Shown here: positions 9,344 through 54,102 of the stretch, one piece after another
How the letters are laid out: every line of letters starts with the position of its first letter
Position numbering within the stretch: position 1 is the first letter of the stretch
Source: a virus
Lineage: Duplodnaviria; Caudoviricetes
Virus record (IMG/VR): IMGVR_UViG_3300048576_000547
Location: 1-54,102 of that record
Direction: 5' to 3' (one strand)
DNA length: 54,102 nucleotides
Translations under genes and position numbers: made by a program
Notes under the pieces: model-generated
The model's input: the letters and a program-made list of their open reading frames with translations, nothing else
What the model was told of the DNA's origin: nothing
Databases searched by the model: none

Positions 9344-10368
9344 TGCTGTGCGACGAGATCATCGAAACCTACACGCGAGGCGAAGCCGCGTTCTTTCGTA
9401 AAGTCGAAGGCCCGGAATTCGAGCGGGTGCTCGACAAGATCAGGCGCGCGCACAAGTTCGTCTTTAACGAACGGACAACGGGCATCTTGCATGACGTAAA
9501 AGACATGAAGCCGTCGGGGGTTCTTGCCCTTCTGGATTTTGCTATGCCGCCTTACGGCCTGACCTGGCTCGAATTTCCTCAGATCGAGTTCCACCACAAT
9601 GTTGAATTCCGCGCCGTTGCGGGAAAGCCGCCGACGAAACGCATAGGCTTTCTTGTGGAGCAGACAGGCGACGGCGAACTGCTTATGACCATGGGCTATT
9701 CTTTCAGGAACGCAATTAATCCGCCGACCATCCATCAGATACGCGTCTCTTTCAGGCATCGGCGCTTCTCCGAAATGGAAGAAAGCATTTTCTTTCCGGC
9801 ATTAAAACGGCTTTCCGACGAAGGAATGGATGCGCAGCAAGCCGAGGAAATGCGGTGCATCGTCGAAGAAGCGAATGCCTTCGCCGCTTCTCTGACGCCA
9901 AAGGAAAAAGCCTGCGCGCTGAGCCTTGATCGCATGTTCGTCAAAAAGGCGCATCCGGCCTTTCTTCAGACCCTTGCTAGGACAAACGCCCGCTACGGAG
10001 CGAAAAAGTTCGATGCGTATATGCAGTCTATGTGCAACGACTGGCATGGAGATGAAGGCATTCCGCTATTCGCCTTCGCCTTTCTCTCTTGCCGAAACGT
10101 TTTCGAGGTTTCGGAGGCCGACATCTCCGACAAACTGAACCGCGCGCGCGTCAAGCGCGGGAAAGAGCCGTTTTTCTCCTACCACATGGTCGATCTCAAG
10201 CCGGAGATGAAAAGCAGACTCGACGCCTCGGCAAACACCGGCATTCAGCAGCGCCGCCATTGGGTGCGCGGCCACTTCAAGGAAAGGAAAACAGGCCGCT
10301 TCTTCTGGCACCCGCATCTGGCTGGCAATCCCGATCTTGGGTTCGTCGCCAAGGATTATAAGGCATGA
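9343..10368 (+). CDS. Hypothetical phage protein
   Basis: TAATG coupling; basic C-terminal RRHWVRGHF...WHPHLAG motif. Confidence 0.8.
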   Translation: MLCDEIIETYTRGEAAFFRKVEGPEFERVLDKIRRAHKFVFNERTTGILHDVKDMKPSGVLALLDFAMPPYGLTWLEFPQIEFHHNVEFRAVAGKPPTKRIGFLVEQTGDGELLMTMGYSFRNAINPPTIHQIRVSFRHRRFSEMEESIFFPALKRLSDEGMDAQQAEEMRCIVEEANAFAASLTPKEKACALSLDRMFVKKAHPAFLQTLARTNARYGAKKFDAYMQSMCNDWHGDEGIPLFAFAFLSCRNVFEVSEADISDKLNRARVKRGKEPFFSYHMVDLKPEMKSRLDASANTGIQQRRHWVRGHFKERKTGRFFWHPHLAGNPDLGFVAKDYKA

Positions 10369-10378
10369 GGGAGGCTGC

Positions 10379-11383
10379 GTGAATGTGCTCGACCTCTTTT
10401 CAGGCATCGGCGGGTTCAGCCTCGGTCTCGAAGCGGCGGGCATGCGAACCGTCGCGTTCTGCGAAATTGAGCCGTACTGCCAAACCATCCTGCGCGAGCG
10501 ATGGCCCGGCGTGCAAGTCCACGAAGACGTGCGCAAGCTCGACGGATTCCGCTACAGGGGAACAGTTGACCTTGTTTGCGGCGGATACCCTTGCCAGCCC
10601 TTCAGCATGGCAGGACGCCGCGCTGGCGCGGAAGATGAAAGACACCTCTGGCCGGAAATGCTGCGCGTTATACGAGGCTGCGGGCCGCGATGGGTCGTTG
10701 CCGAAAACGTTGCTGGGCATATTACGCTCGGTTTCGACGAAGTTGCCTCATCGCTGGAAGCTGAAGGCTTCGCCGTCTGGCCGTTTGTACTTCCAGCTTG
10801 CGCTGTTGGCGCTCCCCACCGGCGAGACAGACTTTGGATTGTGGCTCACGCCAAGAGCCAAGGAAAGCAGCGAAAGGCCGGAGACGTTTCTGAAACGAAT
10901 GGGCGACCGCAGCGCGAGATGTCGCGGCAGCCTGACGGCGCAGGTTATGTGGCCAACCCCCAAGGCGCATGCGGGATCGAACCGGCGTCAGAAACCGACA
11001 CCAGCGCAACTGGCGGGCAAAGCGGGGATGGATTTGTCAGTCGCAGTAAAGCTGTGGCCGACGCCTCACGGCTTCAGCCCAGACGGCAAAAGCAACGGGC
11101 CGAGCGGCAACGAACTGGGTCGCGCCGTCAATCAGTCGATGCTTCTTCTGGCGTCTCCGACAGCACAGGATGCGCCCAACAACGGCGGGGCTTCTCAGCC
11201 TTTCCGGAATTCCTCGCCCCTCAATGCAGCGGTTGGTGGGAGTCTGAACCCGATGTGGGTCGAGTGGCTCATGGGATATCCCATCGGGTGGACAGGCTGC
11301 GCGCTCTCGGCAACGCCATCGTCCCGCAAATCGCGGCGATCATCGGACAAGCCATCATGACCTATGAAAAGGAGAACCCGTGA
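10379..11383 (+). CDS. C5-cytosine DNA methyltransferase, alpha chain (motifs I-VIII and X)
   Basis: GGAGG then GTG start; FSGIGG, GYPCQPFS, ENV, HRRDRLWIVA, RLRALGNAIVP; no motif IX in this frame. Confidence 0.92.
   Translation: MNVLDLFSGIGGFSLGLEAAGMRTVAFCEIEPYCQTILRERWPGVQVHEDVRKLDGFRYRGTVDLVCGGYPCQPFSMAGRRAGAEDERHLWPEMLRVIRGCGPRWVVAENVAGHITLGFDEVASSLEAEGFAVWPFVLPACAVGAPHRRDRLWIVAHAKSQGKQRKAGDVSETNGRPQREMSRQPDGAGYVANPQGACGIEPASETDTSATGGQSGDGFVSRSKAVADASRLQPRRQKQRAERQRTGSRRQSVDASSGVSDSTGCAQQRRGFSAFPEFLAPQCSGWWESEPDVGRVAHGISHRVDRLRALGNAIVPQIAAIIGQAIMTYEKENP
10383..11360 (+). CDS. Nested +1-frame ORF, putative beta chain of the C5 methyltransferase (TRD-like WPTP repeats and motif IX)
   Basis: Open for 325 codons inside the MTase gene. 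Carries WLTP/WPTP/WPTP/LASP repeats and LNPMWVEWLMGYPIGWT (motif IX-like). True start codon unknown. Confidence 0.75.
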   Translation: MCSTSFQASAGSASVSKRRACEPSRSAKLSRTAKPSCASDGPACKSTKTCASSTDSATGEQLTLFAADTLASPSAWQDAALARKMKDTSGRKCCALYEAAGRDGSLPKTLLGILRSVSTKLPHRWKLKASPSGRLYFQLALLALPTGETDFGLWLTPRAKESSERPETFLKRMGDRSARCRGSLTAQVMWPTPKAHAGSNRRQKPTPAQLAGKAGMDLSVAVKLWPTPHGFSPDGKSNGPSGNELGRAVNQSMLLLASPTAQDAPNNGGASQPFRNSSPLNAAVGGSLNPMWVEWLMGYPIGWTGCALSATPSSRKSRRSSDKPS

Positions 11384-11721
11384 AATGGTGCGCCATTTGT
11401 TACCGCCAACAGCGCGGCTTCGGCTTTATGCCCGCCTTGATCGGCCAACCCCAAAAACCAGCGCGGCGTTTTTGCAGCATGCGCTGCCTCGATCTTTACG
11501 CACGTCTGTTTAAGGAAGGAAACGGCATGATTGACATGACGGATTTTGAACGCGCTTCTATTCATGCCTGCCTTGTTCCGCTCGGCGAATGCGTGGCCGA
11601 GATCGGGATGGATAAGCCCTTGTCTGCCTATAGCAAAGAACAGGTGCTCACGCTGATCGAGGTGATCGTCACGGCCTATCAGGATGCCATGCGCAAGGGC
11701 AGTCCGGAGGTGCCGTTTTGA
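11380..11721 (+). CDS. DUF6511-like zinc-finger phage protein
   Basis: CAIC...FCSMRC; MIDMTDFE...IGMDKPL...EVPF. Confidence 0.75.
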   Translation: MKWCAICYRQQRGFGFMPALIGQPQKPARRFCSMRCLDLYARLFKEGNGMIDMTDFERASIHACLVPLGECVAEIGMDKPLSAYSKEQVLTLIEVIVTAYQDAMRKGSPEVPF

Positions 11722-12491
11722 GCATGCTTGATTTCAATCACGGCTCGGATCGCGCCGCGCAGGATCCGCGCTCGATCCCCATCGGCCAGCGTATCAACGA
11801 TCTCATTGATGCAGCGCTGATAGCGGAACGCGCTACGCAGCCGCGCCGAGAATATCTGGGCGCGTCCATGCTTGGCGACCCATGTTCTCGTCGCATCCAG
11901 TACGAGTATGTTGGCGCGCCCAAGGATCAGGGTAAGGATTTTGACGGCCAGACCCTGCGTATCTTTGCGGCTGGGCATCAGTTCGAGGCGCTGTCGATCA
12001 AGTGGCTGCGCGCGGCTGGGTTCGATCTGCGCACGGAAAAAACGGACGGCGGACAGTTTGGCTTCTCGGTCGCCAAGGGCCGCATCAAGGGACATATCGA
12101 TGGCGTCGTTGTCAACGGCCCGTCATGGTTTCTCTATCCCGCGCTGTGGGAACACAAGGCGCTTAAGGACAAAAGCTGGCAGGATTTGGTCAAACGCGGC
12201 CTTGCGATCTCCAAGCCGCTCTATGCGGCACAAGTCGCGCTCTATCAGGGCTATATGCCCGATTTGGCGCAAGCGCCTGCGTTGTTTACGGCCTTAAACA
12301 AGGACACGGAAGAACTCTATCACGAGCTTGTGCCGTTCGACGCCTCCTTGGCGCAAAGCACGAGCGACAAGGCTGTGAACATTCTGCGCGCCACGGATGC
12401 CGGAGAGTTGCTGCCGCGCATGGCATCAAACCCAGACTTCTATCTCTGCCTCTGCTGCCCCTACGCCCAAAGGTGCTGGCATGGCGGATAA
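11718..12491 (+). CDS. Cas4-like PD-(D/E)XK exonuclease
   Basis: YLGASMLGDPCSRR, GHIDG, LWEHK, QVALYQ, C-terminal CxxCPYxxxC. Confidence 0.88.
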   Translation: MSMLDFNHGSDRAAQDPRSIPIGQRINDLIDAALIAERATQPRREYLGASMLGDPCSRRIQYEYVGAPKDQGKDFDGQTLRIFAAGHQFEALSIKWLRAAGFDLRTEKTDGGQFGFSVAKGRIKGHIDGVVVNGPSWFLYPALWEHKALKDKSWQDLVKRGLAISKPLYAAQVALYQGYMPDLAQAPALFTALNKDTEELYHELVPFDASLAQSTSDKAVNILRATDAGELLPRMASNPDFYLCLCCPYAQRCWHGG

Positions 12492-14649
12492 GATGGACTT
12501 TAATGATGCCCGCAAACAGGGGCCGCTTGATCCTCGCGCCAAGATCGACGCCGCGCAGGTCAAGCAACGCATGGCGGATTGCCATCGGCAAATCCTTGAC
12601 CATCTATTGCCGGGCGGCCTCTATGTCGGCGAAGAGTTTCATTGCGGCAACATCTCAGGGATACCCGGCGACAGCCTTAAGCTCAGCGTGCGCAAAAACA
12701 AGATGGGCGTGGGCGAGGATTTCGCCACGGGCCAGAAGTTCGGCGACCTGATCGATGTTTGGAAAGCCGTGCGAGGCGAGGATTACTGGACGGCGCTTCA
12801 AAACATCGCGGCCTTTCTGAATATCGCCGAGCGCATGCCAGCGCCGAAACCTCAAAAGGTTTCTAAAAACCAACCCGACATGGGACAACCCGTCGCGCAG
12901 TATAATTATACCGACGCGGCTGGCGTGATCCAGCTTGTCGTCTACCGGCATGAATATCAGGAAAACGGCAAGCGCAAAAAGGCCTTCAAAATATGGAACG
13001 CCGTCACGCACAAATGGGAGGCGCCTAAATCAGGCCGCCCACTCTATAACCAAACGGGCATCGTGGATGTCGACACGGTCATTCTGGTCGAGGGCGAAAA
13101 AGCGGCGGACGCGCTCATAGGCTCCGGCATCCCTGCGACCAGCGCCTTGAGCGGCTCTAATGCGCCGACCGATAAGACGGACTGGTCGCCTCTAGCTGGC
13201 AAGCGCGTTCTGATCTGGCCGGACAACGACGCGACGGGTTTGTCCTATGCGCAAGCCGCCGCCAAAGCTGCGTTGGCAACAGGCGCAGCAAGTGTCGGCA
13301 TCCTTTCTCTGCCGCAGGACAAAACCGAAGGCTGGGATGCGGCGGACGCTTGCGTCGAAGGCTTCGACATCCCCGCGTTTTTGGAACAGCCCATTGAAAC
13401 GCTCGCGCCTTCCGTTGAACAACGAGGGCCTTTTCACATCACGGACTGGTCTGCCAACCGCTTCAAGACAGGCCAATCAAAGCCCGTTGAATGGCTGGTC
13501 GAAGACGTGATCCCCATGAACTGCGCCGGAATCTTCGCGGCGACGGGCGGCGCAGGCAAAGGGATGCTCATTCTTGATCTCTCGTTGAAAGTCGCCATGC
13601 CCGGCATGACGGGTGGGCTTCTCGATGTGAAGCCGATGGCGTTTGGCCATCCCGTGACCGCCACGGGGGCAGCCGTGATCTTCGCGGCGGAAGACGATTG
13701 GGACGAATTGCACCGCCGCCTTGATCGACTTGACCCGGAAGGACGGCGCGAGCACCCGAACGTGCGGCTCTTTCCCATTCCCTTGCCGAGCGCGTCCGGA
13801 CCCATGACTTTGTTTTCGACCTCGCCGGAGGGAACGAAAACTACGCCGCTTTGGGACATGATCACGTCAGAGCTTGAGGCCATTCCAGATTTGCGCCTTG
13901 TCGTGTTCGATCCGCTCGCTTGCTTCATCAACGTCAGCATCGACGGGGACAACAACGCCGCGCAGTACATCCTGAGCATGTTCTCCTTCATGGCGGCGCA
14001 GCTGAAAATCTCCATCATCCTGTGCCACCACACGACCAAGGACAGCGGCTCGCGCGGCGGACACAAGATCACGGCGATGGCGGCGCGCAACACCATTCGC
14101 GGCGCTTCGGCGCTCGTGAACGGCGGTCGCTGGGCGTATGTCCTCTGGACGGACGAAAAAGCCAATCTGCGCGAGGAATGCAAATGGCTGAACATCGAGT
14201 GGGAAGAGGATTTTCTCTTCAAGGGCGCTCTCGTCAAAGGCAACCTCGGCGGCGACAAGAGCATCCACACTTTCACGCGCGACAAGAAAACAGGTCTTCT
14301 GATCGACCGCACGCACGAGTTCCGGCGCTCGGTCTATGCCCACAAGGATCAGATGCTCGACAGTCTCGTGGAAGCCGTGGAGAAAGCGGCGAAGGCGGGA
14401 CTGCCATACACGAAGACGGGTGCGAACAGCCTTTACGAGCGCCGCGAGGAATTGCCCGAACCCTTCCACAAGCTGGGCCGCATCGCGTTCGAAAACTCCG
14501 TTCAAAATCTTTTGAACAACCAAATTCTCGTCAAGGCCGCCGCCAAGGGCAGCAAGACCGTCCAATGGCTCGATGTGCCGGATGGCCCCTTTGCTTTAGG
14601 CGTTGGCAACTTTGCCGTGGGCAAAAAAGGAGCCGCTCATGAAAATTAA
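12481..14649 (+). CDS. Primase-helicase (TOPRIM plus RepA/AAA_25 helicase)
   Basis: VEGEKAADAL, WPDND, GWDAAD; ATGGAGKG, VVFDP, CHHTTK, RGASAL. Confidence 0.92.
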   Translation: MADKMDFNDARKQGPLDPRAKIDAAQVKQRMADCHRQILDHLLPGGLYVGEEFHCGNISGIPGDSLKLSVRKNKMGVGEDFATGQKFGDLIDVWKAVRGEDYWTALQNIAAFLNIAERMPAPKPQKVSKNQPDMGQPVAQYNYTDAAGVIQLVVYRHEYQENGKRKKAFKIWNAVTHKWEAPKSGRPLYNQTGIVDVDTVILVEGEKAADALIGSGIPATSALSGSNAPTDKTDWSPLAGKRVLIWPDNDATGLSYAQAAAKAALATGAASVGILSLPQDKTEGWDAADACVEGFDIPAFLEQPIETLAPSVEQRGPFHITDWSANRFKTGQSKPVEWLVEDVIPMNCAGIFAATGGAGKGMLILDLSLKVAMPGMTGGLLDVKPMAFGHPVTATGAAVIFAAEDDWDELHRRLDRLDPEGRREHPNVRLFPIPLPSASGPMTLFSTSPEGTKTTPLWDMITSELEAIPDLRLVVFDPLACFINVSIDGDNNAAQYILSMFSFMAAQLKISIILCHHTTKDSGSRGGHKITAMAARNTIRGASALVNGGRWAYVLWTDEKANLREECKWLNIEWEEDFLFKGALVKGNLGGDKSIHTFTRDKKTGLLIDRTHEFRRSVYAHKDQMLDSLVEAVEKAAKAGLPYTKTGANSLYERREELPEPFHKLGRIAFENSVQNLLNNQILVKAAAKGSKTVQWLDVPDGPFALGVGNFAVGKKGAAHEN

Positions 14650-45915: not shown

Positions 45916-46084
45916 CCCCGCTTGCGTCTGCCCACCGATTAAAGAATACAGTCGGGAGTTTCAGGAAAAGCTTGCAAAAGAGATTGATGTAGCACCGGAA
46001 AACGGAGCATATCCGCAGGCGATCTTAGACTACGCTTTACTCAGAGAACAGTTAGCTTCCTGTCTGAAGAAGGACAATTTTTGA
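45836..46084 (+). CDS. Putative o-spanin lipoprotein (Rz1-like)
   Basis: Overlaps the i-spanin in another frame; lipobox LNA-C; CPPIKEYSREFQ...DYALLREQL..C. Confidence 0.75.
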   Translation: MPNFAPRWTLLALALISLNACGTANYNPACVCPPIKEYSREFQEKLAKEIDVAPENGAYPQAILDYALLREQLASCLKKDNF

Positions 46085-48316
46085 ATCAACCGCACCTGTT
46101 CCCATCATGATATGGTAATGTTTTATATAGCCGCATTCACTAAAAATCTTCTCGAACAACTCAAAAAATTTGTTTTCATCAATCTCGACTTCATCGACAT
46201 AACTTGCAGCATCGGAATGAGATTCTCTATCCATATAACGTCCAAATGCTGTATATGAAATATCCCCCTGATTAGCCTTGACTAGGTGATTTAAAGCGGA
46301 CGCCAGTTTATCTTCACCATCAATAAACGAGAAGAATTGCTCAAGAATATTCCTCATTGTGTTTGCAAGGAGGATCTTCGAGGCAGCACCATCTTTTATG
46401 TCTCTCAGCAATTGCCAGTAGGTTTCGTAATTATTTTTAATTTCTTTTTTTGACATGGGCTGAATATAGGTCGTCTTTTCCCTTTTTGTAATTCTAAACA
46501 AGCGATATTGTTTAGAAAGATCTTCGCCTTTGAAGTAGCCTAACAGCTCATGCAAAAAATAAAGATGGTGCGTAAGAACAAATATCTGGCGGTAAGAACC
46601 ATCTTTAAAAAACTTTTCTTTAATCAGCATCCCCACATCGAACACGAGATTAAATGATAAACTCGAAATCGGATCGTCAATAACTATTATTCGATTTGAC
46701 GTGCCTCCATTGCTCTCAATATCGGACACTCCGACACAAGCCTCCAGATAATACAGGAAGGAAATGAGCGTCTTTTCTCCCTCGCTAAGTGTCTTAAATG
46801 CATAGTCTTCGGGTGGACGATCATCACGAACAACCCTGTAAACAAATCTATTATCATCCTCTAAATTAACGCGTTGAATACTGAACCCATCCAGCCCAAA
46901 AGATCTCAAGCGGCTGTTGATGCGCCTAACGGACTCTTCAACATTTTTTGTCTTTTTTTGGTTCTCAATAACAATCTTTTCCAAAGAGCGTTCTTTTTCC
47001 ATGATGGAAGCCAGTTCCTTGGAAGCTTCTTCGTTCTTTTTGTTCAGCGCTGCTGATTGCAGTACATATGAGCTAATGTCAGCCTCATATTTTAGATGGA
47101 TAAGACCCCAGAAAGCGCGTTTTATCTGCTCTTTTGCAGTCGTCAAATTCTTCAATTTTTCATTAAAGGCGTTAAGCTCTTTGTTGTGATCAGATATTAT
47201 CTCGTTTATGCGCTCAACGAATGGCATTGTTGGAGCAAGAAGAACTTCCTCACCTAACGTTGCCAATTTCTTTTCGACAGCCTTCAGGTTCTTGTTTAAA
47301 CTATTTTGAAGATCAGTTGCGCAATCTAAAAATCCGCTGCGACTACTAATCTCAGCATCATCCCTATATTTTTGAAGAAGGGCCACAGTGCTTTCGTATT
47401 CCGCCCTATATGTTTCGTTGTGTTTTTGTATTTCGATTTTTTTGTTTTGATATGTAGCATCAACATGCGCCTTGATCTTAGTTCTAAGATCAGCGTCTAT
47501 CTTCTGTTTGCAGAATGGACATACGTCAGTTTTATCCAAATAGGATTCGATTCCTTTATTAAGCCACGTCTCATGGTTCAGCTTGGCAATCAGGTCACTT
47601 AAGTAGCTGTCTTGCGATCCAACAATTTTATCCTGAAAGATTAAATTGTTTTCTATGTCAGACACGAAAGGCTCAACCATTTGGAGCAGTGGCTTTTCTG
47701 CGGTGTCGCCAGCCGTCAGCTGCTCGTATTCGGTCTTTAATCGTTCAAGTTCGGCAGGTACATTTTCTGCTTGTTTCTCAGGAGAAGATGACAATAACAC
47801 CTGCTTCAGAAATGCGTCCTTGCTTCCCATGTATCCCATAAGACAGGGTCGCAACGATGTGTTTTCATACGCCTGTTTCTCACCCCAAACTTTCTCAGAA
47901 AGAGCATTCCTGTTTTGCATCCCGTCCGATTGGCAATCTGCAATAATTTTAGCCTGAGCCTCTCGAAGTGGAGATTGTTTTAGCAATTCAGAGCGAGCAT
48001 TTTTGATATTTGTCTCAGCTTCAGTATTGGCCTTGTCTAGCGTAAAGATACCCTTCTGGCAGTCCGTCAAAAGAAAATTATCTTCGACATATTTTTCATT
48101 ATAGACAAGAAATTCCGGCTTAATCAGGTTTGGCTTAAATTTTATATCGCAAAAGGTATAATCGCCAATCTTCTCTCCTTGAAAATACAGGAACTGCGCC
48201 AGAGTAGATTTGCCTGTTCCGTTGAGTCCGTAAAAGATGTTAACGCGCTTAAGTTCATCAAGAGTAACAGGAGATGAATAGCTGGCCACAGAATGAAGTT
48301 TTATCTCTTGAACCAT
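46052..48316 (-). CDS. rloC: RloC-like anticodon nuclease (Rad50/SMC-type ABC ATPase, zinc hook, HEPN)
   Basis: GLNGTGKST, CPFC hook within coiled coil, LSEGEK, IVIDDPISSL, LTHH, NTMRNILE and RYMDRESH; AT-rich; downstream of res. Confidence 0.8.
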   Translation of the reverse strand: MVQEIKLHSVASYSSPVTLDELKRVNIFYGLNGTGKSTLAQFLYFQGEKIGDYTFCDIKFKPNLIKPEFLVYNEKYVEDNFLLTDCQKGIFTLDKANTEAETNIKNARSELLKQSPLREAQAKIIADCQSDGMQNRNALSEKVWGEKQAYENTSLRPCLMGYMGSKDAFLKQVLLSSSPEKQAENVPAELERLKTEYEQLTAGDTAEKPLLQMVEPFVSDIENNLIFQDKIVGSQDSYLSDLIAKLNHETWLNKGIESYLDKTDVCPFCKQKIDADLRTKIKAHVDATYQNKKIEIQKHNETYRAEYESTVALLQKYRDDAEISSRSGFLDCATDLQNSLNKNLKAVEKKLATLGEEVLLAPTMPFVERINEIISDHNKELNAFNEKLKNLTTAKEQIKRAFWGLIHLKYEADISSYVLQSAALNKKNEEASKELASIMEKERSLEKIVIENQKKTKNVEESVRRINSRLRSFGLDGFSIQRVNLEDDNRFVYRVVRDDRPPEDYAFKTLSEGEKTLISFLYYLEACVGVSDIESNGGTSNRIIVIDDPISSLSFNLVFDVGMLIKEKFFKDGSYRQIFVLTHHLYFLHELLGYFKGEDLSKQYRLFRITKREKTTYIQPMSKKEIKNNYETYWQLLRDIKDGAASKILLANTMRNILEQFFSFIDGEDKLASALNHLVKANQGDISYTAFGRYMDRESHSDAASYVDEVEIDENKFFELFEKIFSECGYIKHYHIMMGTGAVDSKIVLLQTGS

Positions 48317-48336
48317 CTCCTTCCTCCATGACTTTC

Positions 48337-51270
48337 TTAAAAAGAAAATGTGGATTGTATCCGTTCATCAACAGGCCTTAGTTTCGCATATTCCAGCATG
48401 TCCTTAATGGATGCGCCTTTGTCGCGCCATTCGTAGAAAACGCCTTCACCAAGCAACACATAGTGCCACTCTGCATTCCCGCGTTGTTCGGGCGCAAGGC
48501 TGTTCAAACGGTCACACCATGAAACGGCAGCGCGTTTTTTCCGTTTAACATTCGGTGTGTTGACTTGTCCTTGTGCTTTCGTCTCGACGAGATAGATTTT
48601 ATCCTCACAACGGACAAGAAAATCGGGGTAGTAGAATGCCGGAAGTCCATCTTCTTTGACATAACGCAACCTTGTGAAGATGTGCTTCTGTTCATTGAGC
48701 TTGCAGAAAGCATCGACGGAACCATCTCGATCAACCGTCTCGATGAAGGCCCGTTCAAGACCGCCGCTACGAGAGGGATATGGCAAGCGCAAATAAATGC
48801 TCTTGCTGACAGCCAAAGACGAACTCTCTCTCATTGTCAGTTTTGGGACTTCTGATAACAGACGATGGGTCACTTCTGCATCTGCGGTAATTGCCGTTTC
48901 CTCAGCCGCCAAAAGCTGTCGCGCCCAAACCTTCATGACGTGTTCTGTTACTGGATCGACAAGCAGGATGCGCCAGTTTTCATCTGTAAACGGATCAAAA
49001 GCCCTCTCAAAAAGGCGTGTTCGGATATACTCGTCTATTCCGTTCGCTAGATATGCCCGATTAATTTGGATATGCGGAAATTCGGTATTCTTCTTGAATT
49101 TTGTAGAGCTGTCCGTAAGCGGCTGGCTTAAAGCCTCCGTAATTCGACGAACAACACGCCCGAGGTAGTCGTTGTATCCCGTGGCCGTCATCACGCCACC
49201 GTTGACGCGATAGTCACCAAAACGGGTCTTGTCCTGAACGTCCTCGGAATGGAACTTTTCTCCGATCCCAATCATTGCCTTGAGTTTATCAACCGAAAAG
49301 GTCGTAAAGGATTCAAGAGAAGAAACAGCAATTTCTCGCGTTTGCACTTCTTCTTCTCTCTCGCGGAGAATGAAGGGAATGGCAAAATCATAGTCCTGAT
49401 AATTGGGGCGCATCCCTATAGCCACAAGGTCGCCATTAGCGGAACCACCAGTGTCATCGTCATCTTCGATCTCACCAACGAGACCCTCTTTAATCAATTC
49501 TTCGTAAAACTCGATGAAAGCTGGATGTTCGACAATCGATAGAATGTCGATCATGCTTCCCGGCGTTTTACCTTCTCGAATGAGCTTGCGATTATCTCGC
49601 TTGATGTCGTCAAAGTCTGTGCCACGCCACATAAGGCGAAGACCGCGTCCAATCGTTTGTTCCAGCAAAATCCCAGCAGCAGAAGCGCGAAGCGGGACAA
49701 TGACGCAGATGTTGTTAACGTCAAACCCTTCGCGAAGCATTAACACGCTAATAACGACGCGTGGGTGGGCGTGGCGATCAACATCGAAAAGACGCTCACG
49801 AAGAACCTTCCACTCGTCCATCTTAAGTTCGCCTTTGCGGTTGGAATCAACACGCAAAATCTCTTCTTGTCCTAAACCCTCTAGTTTCAGAAAGTCTTCG
49901 ATCAAGGGCGTTACGGAGGTATCTTCGCAGACCACGAGCATCTTCGGGTGACGGTCGGGATCAAGCTTGGCAAAATCTTCTTCAAGCTTCCGAAGCTTTG
50001 TTAGCCCTGCGCGAAGCATGATGCGTTGGCCCTCGGCAAGCTGCGGATTTCCGTTTTCATCACGATATGCCTTGAACTCCAATTGTTCGTCGGACAGCGC
50101 ACCAATTTCGCTACGCTTGTCAAGAACAAGGGACTTAACCAGCCCAAGTTTCATCGCCGTTTTGAGATCGAAGTCCACCACAATATGGGGGAAGAAAGAC
50201 TTTTTAGCATTTTTGCCAGTTCCGACTTCATTGTAAGGCGTTGCCGAGAAGTCAACTTGGACAAAACGGTCTGCCTTTGGCTCAGAAATCAGTGAAAGGC
50301 TTTTCTGCCATTCAACTTCAGAAACTTCTCCTTCACGTTTGAACTCGTGAATATGGTGGGCCTCGTCATTAAAGACCATTAGGCTCGGAAGCTCACATAG
50401 ATAATTCAAAATGCCGCCGCGCTCAAACCGCCTATTCAGCACATTAAGATCGTTGCCCTGTGAGGTTCCGGGCGTCAATGGGAGAAGATCGCTGACAACG
50501 TCTTTTGCATCAGGGCGCGTGCCGGGAGCAAAGACCATTTCTTGCTGCCCATCATCTTCGCCTTCTTCGCTCAAAACATGCCAGTTAGCGATGGCTATAA
50601 CGCCCCCAGAAGTGACTTTTCTCCCAATCTCTTCCTTGGGGCACACAGCCCCCTGAACAAAGCGAAATACTTCGTCGCGGTGTGCGGCTGGGATGAAAAG
50701 CTCTTGAAACGTCGAAAGATCGGACGTGACGAAATTGCGCTTTCCATCACGCTCCTTGCCCTCAAAAGCATCGCGCAAGCGGTCATAAACAATCAGCCCC
50801 GGCGCAACTATCAAGAAATTCTTGGTGTATCGCGGATTGCTGGGGTCACGGTTGGCGTTGAGGACTTGCCAAACCATAAACGCCTGCAAAACCCACGTTT
50901 TGCCTGTACCTGTTGCCATCTTGAGGCAGTATTTGGGACAATTGTTTTTTGGCGCGCTAATAATGTCTGCTGCTTGCGCGCTTGTCATCAAGACCTCAGG
51001 AGCCACGTTCTCATAAAGCCCCTTAAGTGTCGTCATACCAAGAACTTCGTGGGCGTAAATGACATTTAGGATTGCGGTTTTTTGCCCCTCATGAAAATTG
51101 TAAGGGCGCGTGTCTAGAAAATCTTGCTGAAACCACCATTTCAAAAGCTCGGCGGTTGTATCGCTCACTTGTGACAGTATAGGGGCGTCTCCATTCTCAA
51201 GGCCAACGCAAGCCTCAGCAACACGAGCAGAAAGAAGGCGAGCGAGGGTAAGGTCATTTATGCTTGCCAT
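48337..51270 (-). CDS. res: Type III restriction endonuclease subunit
   Basis: MATGTGKT, NDEAHH, FSATP, LREGFDV, EQTIGRGLR; C-terminal PDF...VETK nuclease. Confidence 0.92.
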   Translation of the reverse strand: MASINDLTLARLLSARVAEACVGLENGDAPILSQVSDTTAELLKWWFQQDFLDTRPYNFHEGQKTAILNVIYAHEVLGMTTLKGLYENVAPEVLMTSAQAADIISAPKNNCPKYCLKMATGTGKTWVLQAFMVWQVLNANRDPSNPRYTKNFLIVAPGLIVYDRLRDAFEGKERDGKRNFVTSDLSTFQELFIPAAHRDEVFRFVQGAVCPKEEIGRKVTSGGVIAIANWHVLSEEGEDDGQQEMVFAPGTRPDAKDVVSDLLPLTPGTSQGNDLNVLNRRFERGGILNYLCELPSLMVFNDEAHHIHEFKREGEVSEVEWQKSLSLISEPKADRFVQVDFSATPYNEVGTGKNAKKSFFPHIVVDFDLKTAMKLGLVKSLVLDKRSEIGALSDEQLEFKAYRDENGNPQLAEGQRIMLRAGLTKLRKLEEDFAKLDPDRHPKMLVVCEDTSVTPLIEDFLKLEGLGQEEILRVDSNRKGELKMDEWKVLRERLFDVDRHAHPRVVISVLMLREGFDVNNICVIVPLRASAAGILLEQTIGRGLRLMWRGTDFDDIKRDNRKLIREGKTPGSMIDILSIVEHPAFIEFYEELIKEGLVGEIEDDDDTGGSANGDLVAIGMRPNYQDYDFAIPFILREREEEVQTREIAVSSLESFTTFSVDKLKAMIGIGEKFHSEDVQDKTRFGDYRVNGGVMTATGYNDYLGRVVRRITEALSQPLTDSSTKFKKNTEFPHIQINRAYLANGIDEYIRTRLFERAFDPFTDENWRILLVDPVTEHVMKVWARQLLAAEETAITADAEVTHRLLSEVPKLTMRESSSLAVSKSIYLRLPYPSRSGGLERAFIETVDRDGSVDAFCKLNEQKHIFTRLRYVKEDGLPAFYYPDFLVRCEDKIYLVETKAQGQVNTPNVKRKKRAAVSWCDRLNSLAPEQRGNAEWHYVLLGEGVFYEWRDKGASIKDMLEYAKLRPVDERIQSTFSF

Positions 51271-51272
51271 GA

Positions 51273-53321
51273 TCAGACCTCTACAATTGCTTCGGCTTCA
51301 AAGCCAAAAACGTCCACTACGCGCACACAAACACGGCGACTGCCTTCTTTTGCAGGCAAATCTGACAGGCGGGCCGTTGTAACAACGCGGAATGGATCAT
51401 CATCGTTCTCCGTATTTCCGCGATAATCTTGCCAAACGGAACGGAACACATGGCCATCATAATCGGGGTCAACACTCCAATACTCAATCAATGCCATCGG
51501 GTCTTTGTTGACAATTCCTTGAAGCTTCTTCCTGTTGGCCTCGTCAAGGTTGAGCGCATCGGGAGATAAAAGAACATAATTGTCGATCTCAACCGTTAAG
51601 CTTTCTTTATCTGCATGCTTCGTCCGTTCAACGGGCTTGATCTTCACATACTGAAGTGAGGAGAAACGAACTTCTTCGGCCTTCAGTTTGTTGCCTTTCT
51701 TCTTCAATCGGTCGAGCAAGTCTGGCGGGATAACAAGCACCTCAAGTTTATCGCCTTGATTAAGCGCCTCAATGTCGTGCCCTATGTTTGAATCAAAGTT
51801 CCAGCCTAAAATAATGACCTTATCCCAGCCCCCCATCAAATTGTCACGGATTTCAATGGCTCTTTTGAGTGTAGCAAGGCCTGTGAGCTTGTTTGGGCTG
51901 TCAGCGAGAACAAGCGTTTTGGTGTGTGAAAGCCGCCCCATATTGCGGTTTGGATTTTCTTCGACAGGAAGAGGTAATGCGCCAAAAAGGCCGAGCACAA
52001 TTTCAGAGAGATCGCCAACACGAAACTTGCGCCCCATCGTGCTGCGCGCCATTTCCACTTGGTAATCACCTACGTGTTGATAAAGAAAAGGTAGGGCATC
52101 TTTATCGATAAGCCTTTGACGTGTGATCATGCATGCGGGCTTTCCTATGTCTGCAACAATCCACCGGCGTCCCAACCGTTCCGCCACAGATGCTGTTGTT
52201 CCAGATCCTGAGAAAAAATCAGCTACTAAATCATTGGGGTTGGAAGATGCTTCTATTATTCTCTGTAATAATTTTTCTGGCTTTTGTGTAGGATATCCAA
52301 CAAGTTCCTGCCCTGTTTTGGACGGAAGGATGTCCGTCCAAATAGATTGAACTCTTCGCCCTTGTTCCGCATTTTCATCCATGTACTGCTTAAGGTAGGG
52401 AGTCCCCGTAGAGCTATAATAAATTCTGTTTTCAGCAGATAATTTATCAATTCCTTCTTGAGAATAACTCCAGTGTCTTCCTGAAGGGGGAGCAATTTCT
52501 TTCTCTTGGAATACACGAGATGGCCCAGATCCCGGAGCCGTTATAGGGCCGGCAAAGAAACGACGGCCAGTTTCTGGCTCAACCAAGTTAAATCTAGTGG
52601 CCAAATGTTCGTCTGTTAACGGAACAAAAATAGGATTAAATGTATGATCACCGGATTTTCCATACGAGTAAAGAACGTCATGTACTACACCAAATTTCCC
52701 TGCATCGTTATGCGCACCGGTTCTTTGCCAAATGATCTCATTTAGAAAGTTTTCTTTCCCAAAAACTTCGTCAGCAATTATCTTTATGTAATGCCCAACA
52801 TGGTAATCCAAGTGAACGTATATTGTTGCTTTATCAGAAAGCAGCTCTCTTACTAGACAAAGCCTTGGAACAAGCATTTGAATATATGATGCGGTTCCAT
52901 CTTGCCACGTGTCTGAATAGGCAAACTGCTCAATCGCAGTTGGCTTTTGCTCAATGTCACCTCCCGGAAGTGTGATCTTTGTTCTATAGTCCGCCTTACT
53001 GTCGAAAGGGGGGTCAATGTAAATCAAATCCACTTTCCCTCGCATAGAAGGCATTTCATCACTGCCTGCAAGGAGTGCTGCAATCGCCAGCAAGTTGTCG
53101 CCATAAATAAGGCGGTTCATATTAGCTGGATCAAGATCATGCGAAGCCTTCTCAGCCCTAGCGAACATATTTTCCCAATTCGTGTCGCGCGAGGGTATAA
53201 CGAGCTCGCGGGTCTGAAGGCCAATACGATGGGCGCTTTCCAATCGCTCCATAATGCGTTCGGCCTCGCGCTTTCCTTCTGTGACGATGGTTGGCAGTTG
53301 TTCCAATAAACTCTTGGTCAT
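51273..53321 (-). CDS. mod: Type III modification methyltransferase subunit
   Basis: GDNL, YIDPPF, YPTQKPE, DFFSGSGTT; start at ATG 53321 (MTKSLLEQLP). Confidence 0.93.
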   Translation of the reverse strand: MTKSLLEQLPTIVTEGKREAERIMERLESAHRIGLQTRELVIPSRDTNWENMFARAEKASHDLDPANMNRLIYGDNLLAIAALLAGSDEMPSMRGKVDLIYIDPPFDSKADYRTKITLPGGDIEQKPTAIEQFAYSDTWQDGTASYIQMLVPRLCLVRELLSDKATIYVHLDYHVGHYIKIIADEVFGKENFLNEIIWQRTGAHNDAGKFGVVHDVLYSYGKSGDHTFNPIFVPLTDEHLATRFNLVEPETGRRFFAGPITAPGSGPSRVFQEKEIAPPSGRHWSYSQEGIDKLSAENRIYYSSTGTPYLKQYMDENAEQGRRVQSIWTDILPSKTGQELVGYPTQKPEKLLQRIIEASSNPNDLVADFFSGSGTTASVAERLGRRWIVADIGKPACMITRQRLIDKDALPFLYQHVGDYQVEMARSTMGRKFRVGDLSEIVLGLFGALPLPVEENPNRNMGRLSHTKTLVLADSPNKLTGLATLKRAIEIRDNLMGGWDKVIILGWNFDSNIGHDIEALNQGDKLEVLVIPPDLLDRLKKKGNKLKAEEVRFSSLQYVKIKPVERTKHADKESLTVEIDNYVLLSPDALNLDEANRKKLQGIVNKDPMALIEYWSVDPDYDGHVFRSVWQDYRGNTENDDDPFRVVTTARLSDLPAKEGSRRVCVRVVDVFGFEAEAIVEV

Positions 53322-53325
53322 TAGA

Positions 53326-53556
53326 TTACTCTTTCCGCGCTTTTGTTTTCTGATGCCGTGCGCGAGTCCATTCGTCGATTTCGTCGCCCCGAAAGCGCCA
53401 AGAACCCCCAACCTTAAAGGCTGGGATTTCTTGCCGCGACAAGAGGCTGTAGATCGAACGCTCCGTGACCTTGAGGTATTTGGCAACTTCCTCAACGGTC
53501 AGGATTTCCGGCTTGGATGATTCGGCACGCTGTTTCATACAGCGTAAAGTATTCAT
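53326..53556 (-). CDS. Excisionase-family (HTH_17) DNA-binding protein leading the R-M operon
   Basis: ILTVEEVAKYLKV...IY.L....IPAFKVGGSWRF; start may be ATG 53538. Confidence 0.88.
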   Translation of the reverse strand: MNTLRCMKQRAESSKPEILTVEEVAKYLKVTERSIYSLLSRQEIPAFKVGGSWRFRGDEIDEWTRARHQKTKARKE

Positions 53557-53670
53557 AAATTTTCATTCTTGCAATCCTCCATTAGCCCCAAACAGGCAGT
53601 CAGGGCATTTGTCAGAGGAATTGCTTCAAATGTGTCGGAAGTCCAGTTCTACAGTCCTTTTCTTGATTGG

Positions 53671-54102
53671 TTAATCCACCTGTTGCGCCGTCAGGAACAT
53701 CGCTTTTTCTAGGGCAGTGAAGAACTGCTGGTAGGGCTGCGGATCCTCGATGGCGGTGATGTTGTACTGGGCGTTGGAGCGGACGATGAGTTGGGTCGTG
53801 CCGCGATCACGGACGCTGACGGTCATGCGCATGGCGTAACCGTTTAATTTCGTTCCGCTTACTGTACCCAACGTGGCATCGGCCTTGTCGATCACGAAGC
53901 CAAGATCCTGAAGCGTGGCGATGATGGTGCGCAGGGTTTTTGCCTTGTCGGTCGTATCGAAGGCGCGGCTTTGCATGTTGCGCAAGGCAACTTGGCTTTC
54001 GGACGTTTGAAGCACCTGATCGCGGCTGTTGGTCTGACAGGCCGTCAGGAGCGAAAGGGCAAGAAAGGATACGGCAACGGTCTTGATTGCTTTGCGGGAC
54101 AT
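53671..54102 (-). CDS. Lipoprotein of unknown function, probably right flank gene
   Basis: Signal peptide with lipobox LTA-C; TLQDLGFVI..AD..LG.VSG. Confidence 0.8.
   Translation of the reverse strand: MSRKAIKTVAVSFLALSLLTACQTNSRDQVLQTSESQVALRNMQSRAFDTTDKAKTLRTIIATLQDLGFVIDKADATLGTVSGTKLNGYAMRMTVSVRDRGTTQLIVRSNAQYNITAIEDPQPYQQFFTALEKAMFLTAQQVD

Follow-up and report, generated by a model that had tools for sequence, protein, structure and literature searches.

The stretch of DNA analysed here, referred to below as the window, comprises positions 1 to 54,102 of the IMG/VR virus record IMGVR_UViG_3300048576_000547 (Duplodnaviria; Caudoviricetes), which is classified as a provirus with an estimated completeness of 92%. 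Its plus strand, on which all features described below are located, carries at 10379-11383 a gene for a C5 DNA methyltransferase chain of 334 amino acids plus stop, designated alpha. Wholly inside this gene, in the +1 reading frame, lies an open reading frame (ORF) for a second chain, designated beta, which is proposed to start with TTG and to comprise 264 amino acids plus stop (10566-11360). It is very probable from comparative sequence analysis and modelling that the locus encodes a nested two-chain C5 DNA methyltransferase with alpha and beta in two frames. A two-chain enzyme of the M.EcoHK31I kind had been suggested in a preliminary description of the sequence, and this suggestion is supported by comparative loci, single-chain relatives, and a model of the complex. 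For comparison, 164 loci were assembled (80 genome loci, 80 viral loci, three annotated records, and the window), and openness and conservation were assessed on 84 non-redundant nested loci with enough flanking genes for codon usage.

Frame 0 is open from 10337 to 11383, and the likely start codon of alpha is GTG at 10379, which is located 4 nucleotides (nt) behind a GGAGG sequence and just past the stop codon of the upstream gene. Conserved motifs of C5 methyltransferases include I (FxGxGG), IV (PCQ), VI (ENV), VIII (RxR), and X (GNxxxP), and all five are found on alpha, namely FSGIGG, PCQ (10589-10597), ENV (10703-10711), HRRDR (10817-10831), and LGNAIVP (11306-11326). PF00145 matches alpha with 146.1 bits (cut-off 22) over residues 2-173 only, with the first half of the model, and TIGR00675 with 112.7 bits (cut-off 100.65), likewise with its first half only; phrog_363 matches residues 2-331 (1.7e-82). 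A profile of 82 alpha sequences, in which G11, G12, P71, C72, Q73, N110, V111, R149, R151, G311, and N312 are invariant, detects M.HhaI at an E value of 5e-36 over HhaI residues 12-178; M.HhaI is the closest solved structure and has a homologous catalytic core.

Three parts can be distinguished in alpha. The catalytic core with motifs I-VIII (10379-10858) shows top-residue fractions of 0.45-0.89 among the 84 loci and a predicted local distance difference test score (pLDDT) of 90-98 for most of residues 1-160. It is followed by a linker of residues ~161-286 (10859-11236), which lies opposite the modules encoded in the +1 frame of beta; between 10856 and 11245 the top-residue fraction drops to 0.05-0.40 with low occupancy, and AlphaFold2 predicts no secondary structure there (pLDDT 36-54). 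The C-terminal block (11237-11380; top-residue fraction 0.73-0.83) contains W-x-x-EP-x-VGRVA and RVDRL, followed by motif X and the last helix, and is aligned weakly with M.HhaI 298-319 by the 82-alpha profile. When alpha was modelled alone from an 82-row alignment, most of residues 1-160 and residues 310-334 were predicted confidently, and residues ~161-309 appeared unstructured with pLDDT values below 55. Thus, the interval between motifs VIII and X that had been described as low-information sequence is indeed unconserved and predicted to be disordered, and alpha lacks a variable region, or target-recognition domain (TRD), and a motif IX between VIII and X on its own chain.

The product of the +1 frame is matched by phrog_1008 (5.9e-30), a family labelled 'DNA methyltransferase', and neither Pfam nor NCBIfam gave a match; with a profile built from 30 betas, only a single chance match was obtained in the PDB (E=0.79), and a protein atlas search with beta returned unnamed clusters only, mostly viral ones. 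Its N-terminal domain (10566-10841), predicted to form two helices and a hairpin and proposed to serve in docking, is overprinted on alpha motifs IV-VIII and has a top-residue fraction of 0.48-0.69. Four modules with WPTP-type starts follow, which were read in the +1 frame exactly where the preliminary description had placed them, as was the block behind them. Module 1 (10842-10949) begins with WLTPRA, in which T95 and P96 are nearly invariant among 82 betas. Module 2 (10950-11054), recognised by its sequence and conservation, begins with WPTPKA, and module 3 (11055-11147), with WPTPHG and WPTPHGFSPDGKSNGPSGNELGRAV, has nearly invariant T166 and P167 and represents a type common to many relatives including the monomeric protein P0222. 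Module 4 (11148-11243), beginning with LASPTAQDA, is degenerate; it aligns to WPTPTVQDA in P0004, a 75%-identical relative that reads WPTPTV where the window has LASPTA, and modules of this type also precede the next block in P0030, P0063, and P0084. This next block, LNPMWVEWLMGYPIGWT (11244-11294), resembles motif IX and is superimposed out of frame on the conserved EPDVGRVAHGISHRVD of alpha. The top-residue fraction over these positions is 0.82-0.86 in beta and 0.83 in alpha, and V232, E233, W234, M236, G237, and P239 are invariant in the 82 betas. Conservation of beta among the 84 loci is concentrated in 10575-10850, the WPTP positions, and 11235-11294 (0.82-0.86), and that of alpha in 10376-10855 and 11246-11336, with none between.

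When the +1 product was searched against 1.84 billion cluster representatives, 12,623 of them matched at E≤1e-3, 2,875 at ≤1e-10, and 64 at ≤1e-30. In all 164 loci a beta-like match was present in the +1 frame of alpha, and the overlap exceeded 300 nt in 161 of them; in a second subfamily beta was likewise nested in the +1 frame at 80 of 80 loci, giving 244 of 244 overall. The betas of this second subfamily, which begin with MSWHFSRAL, had initially been considered as products of stand-alone genes; among the loci examined no non-overlapping beta gene was seen. The loci are distributed over Alphaproteobacteria, Planctomycetota, Bacteroidota, Bacillota, Patescibacteria, Actinomycetes, and viral contigs with G + C contents of 0.45-0.68, and tblastn searches with alpha or beta led to the same place in low-GC Paenibacillus larvae phages (35 and 31% identity). 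Classification of the 164 loci by regular expressions for the motifs yielded 144 nested loci with alpha open from motif IV to X (137 of them not cut by a contig end), four AquI-like split loci, two with a broken alpha, and three unclassified ones; the remaining 11 had no match to the motif IV expression, mostly owing to truncation or variant motifs. Both an N-terminal and a C-terminal match to alpha were present in 155 loci, and in 147 of these alpha runs on between the two without a break.

Chance openness of the frames was evaluated by resampling synonymous codons. Given the alpha protein, the probability that the +1 frame is open over motifs IV-VIII had a median of 0.006 in the 84 loci, and given the beta protein, the probability that the alpha frame is open from motif VIII to the IX-like block had a median of 0.0005 (0.0025 in the window); the third (+2) frame contains a median of 13 stop codons. 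Although the 84 loci were chosen as nested, selection bias cannot explain this openness, because nested loci make up 144 of the 164 loci fetched. The third-position entropy of alpha, which falls from the bin at 10559 onward, amounts to 1.70 bits for motifs I-III, to 1.20 bits for motifs IV-VIII, where the N-terminal domain of beta is overprinted, to 0.44 bits in the IX/X overlap, and to 1.55 bits after the GWT of beta. Judged from these comparisons, both frames are kept open under purifying selection. Alternatively, the +1 ORF might have no coding function and owe its openness to the GC richness of the gene, or the locus might be a monomeric methylase gene that became a pseudogene by frameshift or was misassembled, as could be argued from the 59-62% GC of the window, from a P of 0.22 for the openness of its own +1 frame over motifs IV-VIII, and from the fact that this frame is open by chance upstream of 10560. 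Such an origin is extremely improbable, given that the two-frame layout recurs in every locus, with P values of 0-0.005 at 45-50% GC, that alpha extends unbroken through motifs I to X in nearly all of them, that synonymous sites of alpha are suppressed exactly over the conserved parts of beta, and that identities of 30-60% among the loci exclude a single recent clone.

The preliminary description had the +1 frame open across the whole gene. It is open from 10383 to 11360 (325 codons), but the part upstream of about 10560 is open at chance level. In this upstream part (10383-10565), which is probably not beta-coding, 10 of the 84 loci are open versus 7.9 expected (P ~0.2 for the window) and the third positions of alpha are unconstrained (1.6-1.8 bits); ATG 10383 is therefore probably not the start of beta. 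Among 127 non-identical nested loci there are 85 in which the beta frame becomes open only 20-65 nt ahead of motif IV, and for 70 of these ATG is the first start codon. The drop in entropy and the opening of the frame in relatives make a start near 10566 (TTG) most likely for the window, with ATG 10635 as an alternative. The TTG is preceded at a distance of 4 nt by the Shine-Dalgarno-like sequence AGGGGA (10556-10561), a candidate ribosome-binding site of beta; the closest locus, L004, has CGGGGAACAGTTG at this position and shares GGGGAACAGTTG with the window at the proposed start.

In C5 methyltransferases, the variable or target-recognition region and motif IX are situated between motifs VIII and X. 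What fills this interval in the present family can be seen in relatives that consist of a single chain. In P0222 (544 amino acids), two segments correspond to alpha, namely residues 6-162 to alpha 3-161 (46% identity, E 1e-37) and residues 507-541 to alpha 287-322, and two correspond to beta, namely residues 217-277 to beta 161-223 and residues 383-501 to beta 125-249. P0246 (474 amino acids) has the same order of parts in one frame, i.e. motifs I-VIII, WPTP modules, IX-like block, and motif X, and in both proteins the IX-like block is located directly before motif X. Consequently, the WPTP modules and the LNP-x-WVEWLMG-x-P-x-GW block fill the VIII-X interval, and on sequence grounds those of beta are homologous to this interval of the monomeric relatives. 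A further layout, designated type B, was found in L076, L107, L117, L141, P0236, and genes 39/40 of Arthrobacter phage Jamun: alpha ends after motif VIII, and beta carries the modules, the IX-like block, and motif X and still overlaps motifs IV-VIII of alpha out of frame. It can be argued that, as motif X occurs on either chain, the alpha linker is only a tether and the chains assemble. In Jamun (L246:1003-2001), the annotated start of gene 40 is at 1279, but the ORF reaches back to 1003 and thereby shares 233 nt with gene 39 (636-1235); the overlapping part resembles the N-terminal hairpin region of beta in this family.

The order of parts in the monomeric relatives is exactly that expected if two programmed frameshifts produced one polypeptide, with frame 0 read up to motif VIII, the +1 frame for modules and IX-like block, and frame 0 again for motif X, and the conserved blocks of alpha and beta do abut at 10840-10860 and 11294-11306. 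We nevertheless regard this mechanism as very improbable. Such a product would not need the N-terminal 90 residues of beta over motifs IV-VIII, which are conserved and constrain the third positions of alpha, nor an alpha frame kept open across the linker, for which the odds are ~0.0005. In most loci, moreover, a stop codon and then an ATG are encountered in the beta frame shortly ahead of motif IV, and the type-B relatives have clearly separate genes; no slippery site was seen, although no search was aimed at one.

The two-chain reading was also examined by structure prediction. Beta alone yielded a hairpin at residues 62-80 (pLDDT 88-91) and the IX-like helix as exceptions in an otherwise poor model. 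A joint prediction of alpha and beta, which the preliminary description had named as a check, came out in favour of that description: the interaction prediction score from aligned errors (ipSAE) was 0.89, 0.90, and 0.90 in three runs, and the best of three controls scored 0.00. At least 73% of the contacts are common to the runs, and the pLDDT of the partner is ~54. In the calibration of the complex tool, 58 of 80 solved complexes and 2 of 110 mismatched pairs passed its mark; these counts apply only roughly to the present case, since own alignments were used. In the modelled complex, the beta hairpin (residues 69-80) is paired with residues 132-148 of alpha, which form the strand ahead of motif VIII, and beta 224-247, i.e. 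the IX-like block, packs together with helix 42-60 on alpha 272-333. The model thus supports binding of beta to alpha.

If beta were a genuine protein that is not obligatory, alpha alone would be active, perhaps with low specificity, and beta would modulate, target, or inhibit it or be unrelated to it. All catalytic motifs are indeed located on alpha, and the module region is modelled with low confidence. Against this stands the lack, in alpha, of a conserved variable region and an IX-like block of its own, whose place in the monomeric relatives is occupied by a segment of the beta type. In type-B relatives the chains must assemble, motif X being located on beta, and the alpha chain of M.EcoHK31I is stated to have given no protection by itself once the start codons of beta had been removed (PMC2836561). 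A dispensable beta is therefore improbable.

Several observations weigh against the nested two-chain enzyme as the interpretation of this locus. Beta alone is modelled poorly (mean pLDDT 59.9; modules 50-65), so that its fold and the TRD nature of its modules lack structural support; an attempt to name beta from its structure was dropped for the same reason. The score of the complex may be due in part to resemblance to solved monomeric C5 methyltransferases. The IX or X region is recognised by PF00145 neither in beta nor in type-B beta chains or monomeric relatives, and the label motif IX is therefore based on position and on the consensus of the motif. At the usual beta start of the family the window has no ATG, TTG 10566 and ATG 10635 being the only choices. 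Openness over motifs IV-VIII is not significant for the window taken singly, which makes the family the basis of the case.

According to the interpretation as a two-chain enzyme, alpha would represent the catalytic large domain, in which motifs I-VIII and motif X are joined by a linker of ~125 residues that is predicted to be disordered and whose sequence would be a leftover from coding beta. Beta would be synthesised by internal initiation just before motif IV and consist of the N-terminal docking domain, a variable or target-recognition region of WPTP modules of ~36 residues, and the IX-like helix. In the model, the hairpin of beta would join the edge strand before motif VIII of alpha and the IX-like helix would pack on the motif X region, and assembly of the two chains would restore the two-domain enzyme that is a single polypeptide in the monomeric relatives. 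The start at TTG 10566, the formation of a heterodimer, the need for beta, and a DNA target are inferred parts of this scheme. A role in shielding phage DNA from host restriction would be reasonable for an orphan phage methylase.

The modules deserve separate consideration. The preliminary description had regarded the beta chain of the window as expanded by repeats, an idea that has to be given up: the repeats are the variable region of the family, with 1-5 strict hydrophobic-x-T-P modules per beta in 225 non-identical betas, spaced by a median of 36 residues (quartiles 31 and 44), and the monomeric P0222 has more of them. Its argument that unit lengths in multiples of three would leave both frames intact when modules are gained or lost is trivial, as such lengths arise automatically for motifs sharing one frame. 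In single-linkage clustering, 526 of 669 modules join one cluster, which identifies them as mutually homologous copies of one unit; this collapse into one cluster left types and shuffling unseparated, and typing of modules by this method was discarded. At the DNA level the repeat is limited to the WPTP codons (13 nt, 85% identity), and the modules are therefore not recent duplications. Certain module types recur across proteins, such as WPTPHGFS-x-DGKSNGPSGNELGRAV and a Q-D-A-x-N-N-G type before the IX-like block, and this recurrence is compatible with modular gain and loss. We consider it rather unlikely that the modules are swappable mini recognition units, in which case beta would be exchangeable and possibly multispecific and modules could change without the catalytic chain being touched.

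Multispecific C5 enzymes of Bacillus phages of the SPR and phi3T type are reportedly single chains with dissimilar TRDs whose separate specificities have been proven. The window enzyme is similar to them in being phage-borne and in having tandem units in the variable region between motifs VIII and IX, and differs in that its units are mutually homologous repeats located on a separate chain. What sets it apart from monomeric C5 enzymes in general is that a second chain, read in the +1 frame, carries the variable region and the IX-like block.

M.EcoHK31I of Escherichia coli HK31 is said to have been reported by Lee, Kam and Shaw in 1995. In two later papers, its alpha chain is described as holding motifs I-VIII, motif X, and a predicted TRD, and its beta chain, encoded in another frame inside the alpha gene, as holding motif IX; both chains are needed for activity and the N-terminus of beta matters for association (PMC2836561, PMC3404938). 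Internal methionine codons can serve as beta starts there, according to the same sources. Compared by published description, the window shares with it the two-chain C5 enzyme and the beta ORF wholly inside the alpha gene in another frame. The differences are that the TRD is assigned to alpha in M.EcoHK31I, whereas here the modules and the IX-like block, together with a proposed docking domain over motifs IV-VIII, are on beta, and that M.EcoHK31I belongs to a restriction-modification system, whereas the window gene is an orphan in the replication module of a provirus. The assignment of the M.EcoHK31I TRD to alpha may be only positional, and if so, the window gene would be of the same family. 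A plasmid collection yielded four records, none of which bears the name EcoHK31I. M.AquI and M.EcoHK31I are given as rare naturally two-chain C5 methyltransferases (PMC3404938). The M.AquI-type split, with motifs I-VIII on alpha and IX and X on beta as outlined there (PMC3404938), is encountered in the type-B relatives; the window differs in that alpha retains motif X and the whole of beta lies within the alpha gene. The open-access literature searched yielded no account of a nested methylase family that is widespread among phages.

The preliminary description had expected that standard annotation would miss beta. This holds for some records, which contain alpha only, and not for many Paenibacillus phage records, in which both coding sequences (CDSs) are annotated; gene callers have in fact already produced thousands of beta ORFs. 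In the Paenibacillus larvae phage (Fernvirus) Tadhana, for instance, TADHANA_54/55 comprise an alpha of 356 residues and a nested CDS of 234 residues, both annotated as 'DNA-cytosine methyltransferase', with the same family and nesting as in the window, and the part of the Paenibacillus phage paper that was available lists both methyltransferase genes without remark on the overlap (PMC6070908). In phage HB10c2 of the same group only alpha is annotated. Escherichia phage vB_EcoS-phiEc3 (NC_073323.1, L245:889-1701) contains an unannotated +1 ORF of 270 codons with WPTP modules and an IX-like block inside a gene annotated as 'cytosine specific methyltransferase' (801-1745), and similar matches were obtained in records of Salmonella and Burkholderia phages.

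The methyltransferase gene of the window is located in a replication module, with a Cas4-domain exonuclease and a primase/helicase as neighbours. No restriction enzyme was evident among the four neighbour genes scanned, and by its sequence context the gene appears to be an orphan C5 methyltransferase of the provirus, outside a restriction-modification system. As called by longest ORF, the Cas4-domain exonuclease (11718-12491) and the primase/helicase (12397-14649) overlap by 95 nt, and the true start of the primase probably lies further downstream than this call. The GC content is ~0.58 over 6000-46000, 0.52-0.54 in the first 6 kb, and 0.40-0.49 past ~46 kb (46000-54102); the shifts at the ends of the window are probably provirus-host junctions.

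Some of the relatives show peculiarities of their own. A Roseovarius chromosome from a metagenome-assembled genome (OX638333.1) has five nested loci (L020-L024) whose match statistics are the same throughout, as would be expected of a multi-copy element. In P0120 and P0224 beta shares its frame with the N-terminus of alpha, including motif I and, in P0120, motif IV as well, and the products would be without motifs VI and VIII; these are probably indel errors or decayed copies. In L070:1144-2777 about 190 residues are inserted between motifs I-III and IV, and the frame changes inside motif IV; the insert, whose Cys/His pattern was read as HNH-like, could represent a homing endonuclease, an intron, or an assembly error. 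The beta-like protein P0102 (410 amino acids) has an N-terminal stretch before the hairpin and the modules that we take to be LAGLIDADG-like, possibly a homing endonuclease or intein insertion.

For the family as a whole, these results mean that a very large family, viral for the most part, has nesting of the EcoHK31I type as its standard arrangement; the architecture is common and ancient, and no curated Pfam or NCBIfam model exists for its beta chain. Since many phage records contain alpha only, predictions, specificity assignments, and constructs based on alpha would probably give inactive enzymes, and cultured members such as the Paenibacillus and Arthrobacter phages and the E. coli phage phiEc3 offer themselves as test systems. 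The overlap of ~800 nt is conserved across phyla, and over part of it both frames are conserved and foldable, which makes it a clean system for studying overprinting and dual-coding constraint. If the modules are swappable recognition units after all, nesting would keep the catalytic and recognition halves co-inherited and co-expressed, with only a disposable linker opposite the modules, and together with the overprinted docking domain this would be the largest known long out-of-frame overlap (~265 codons) encoding interacting parts of one enzyme.

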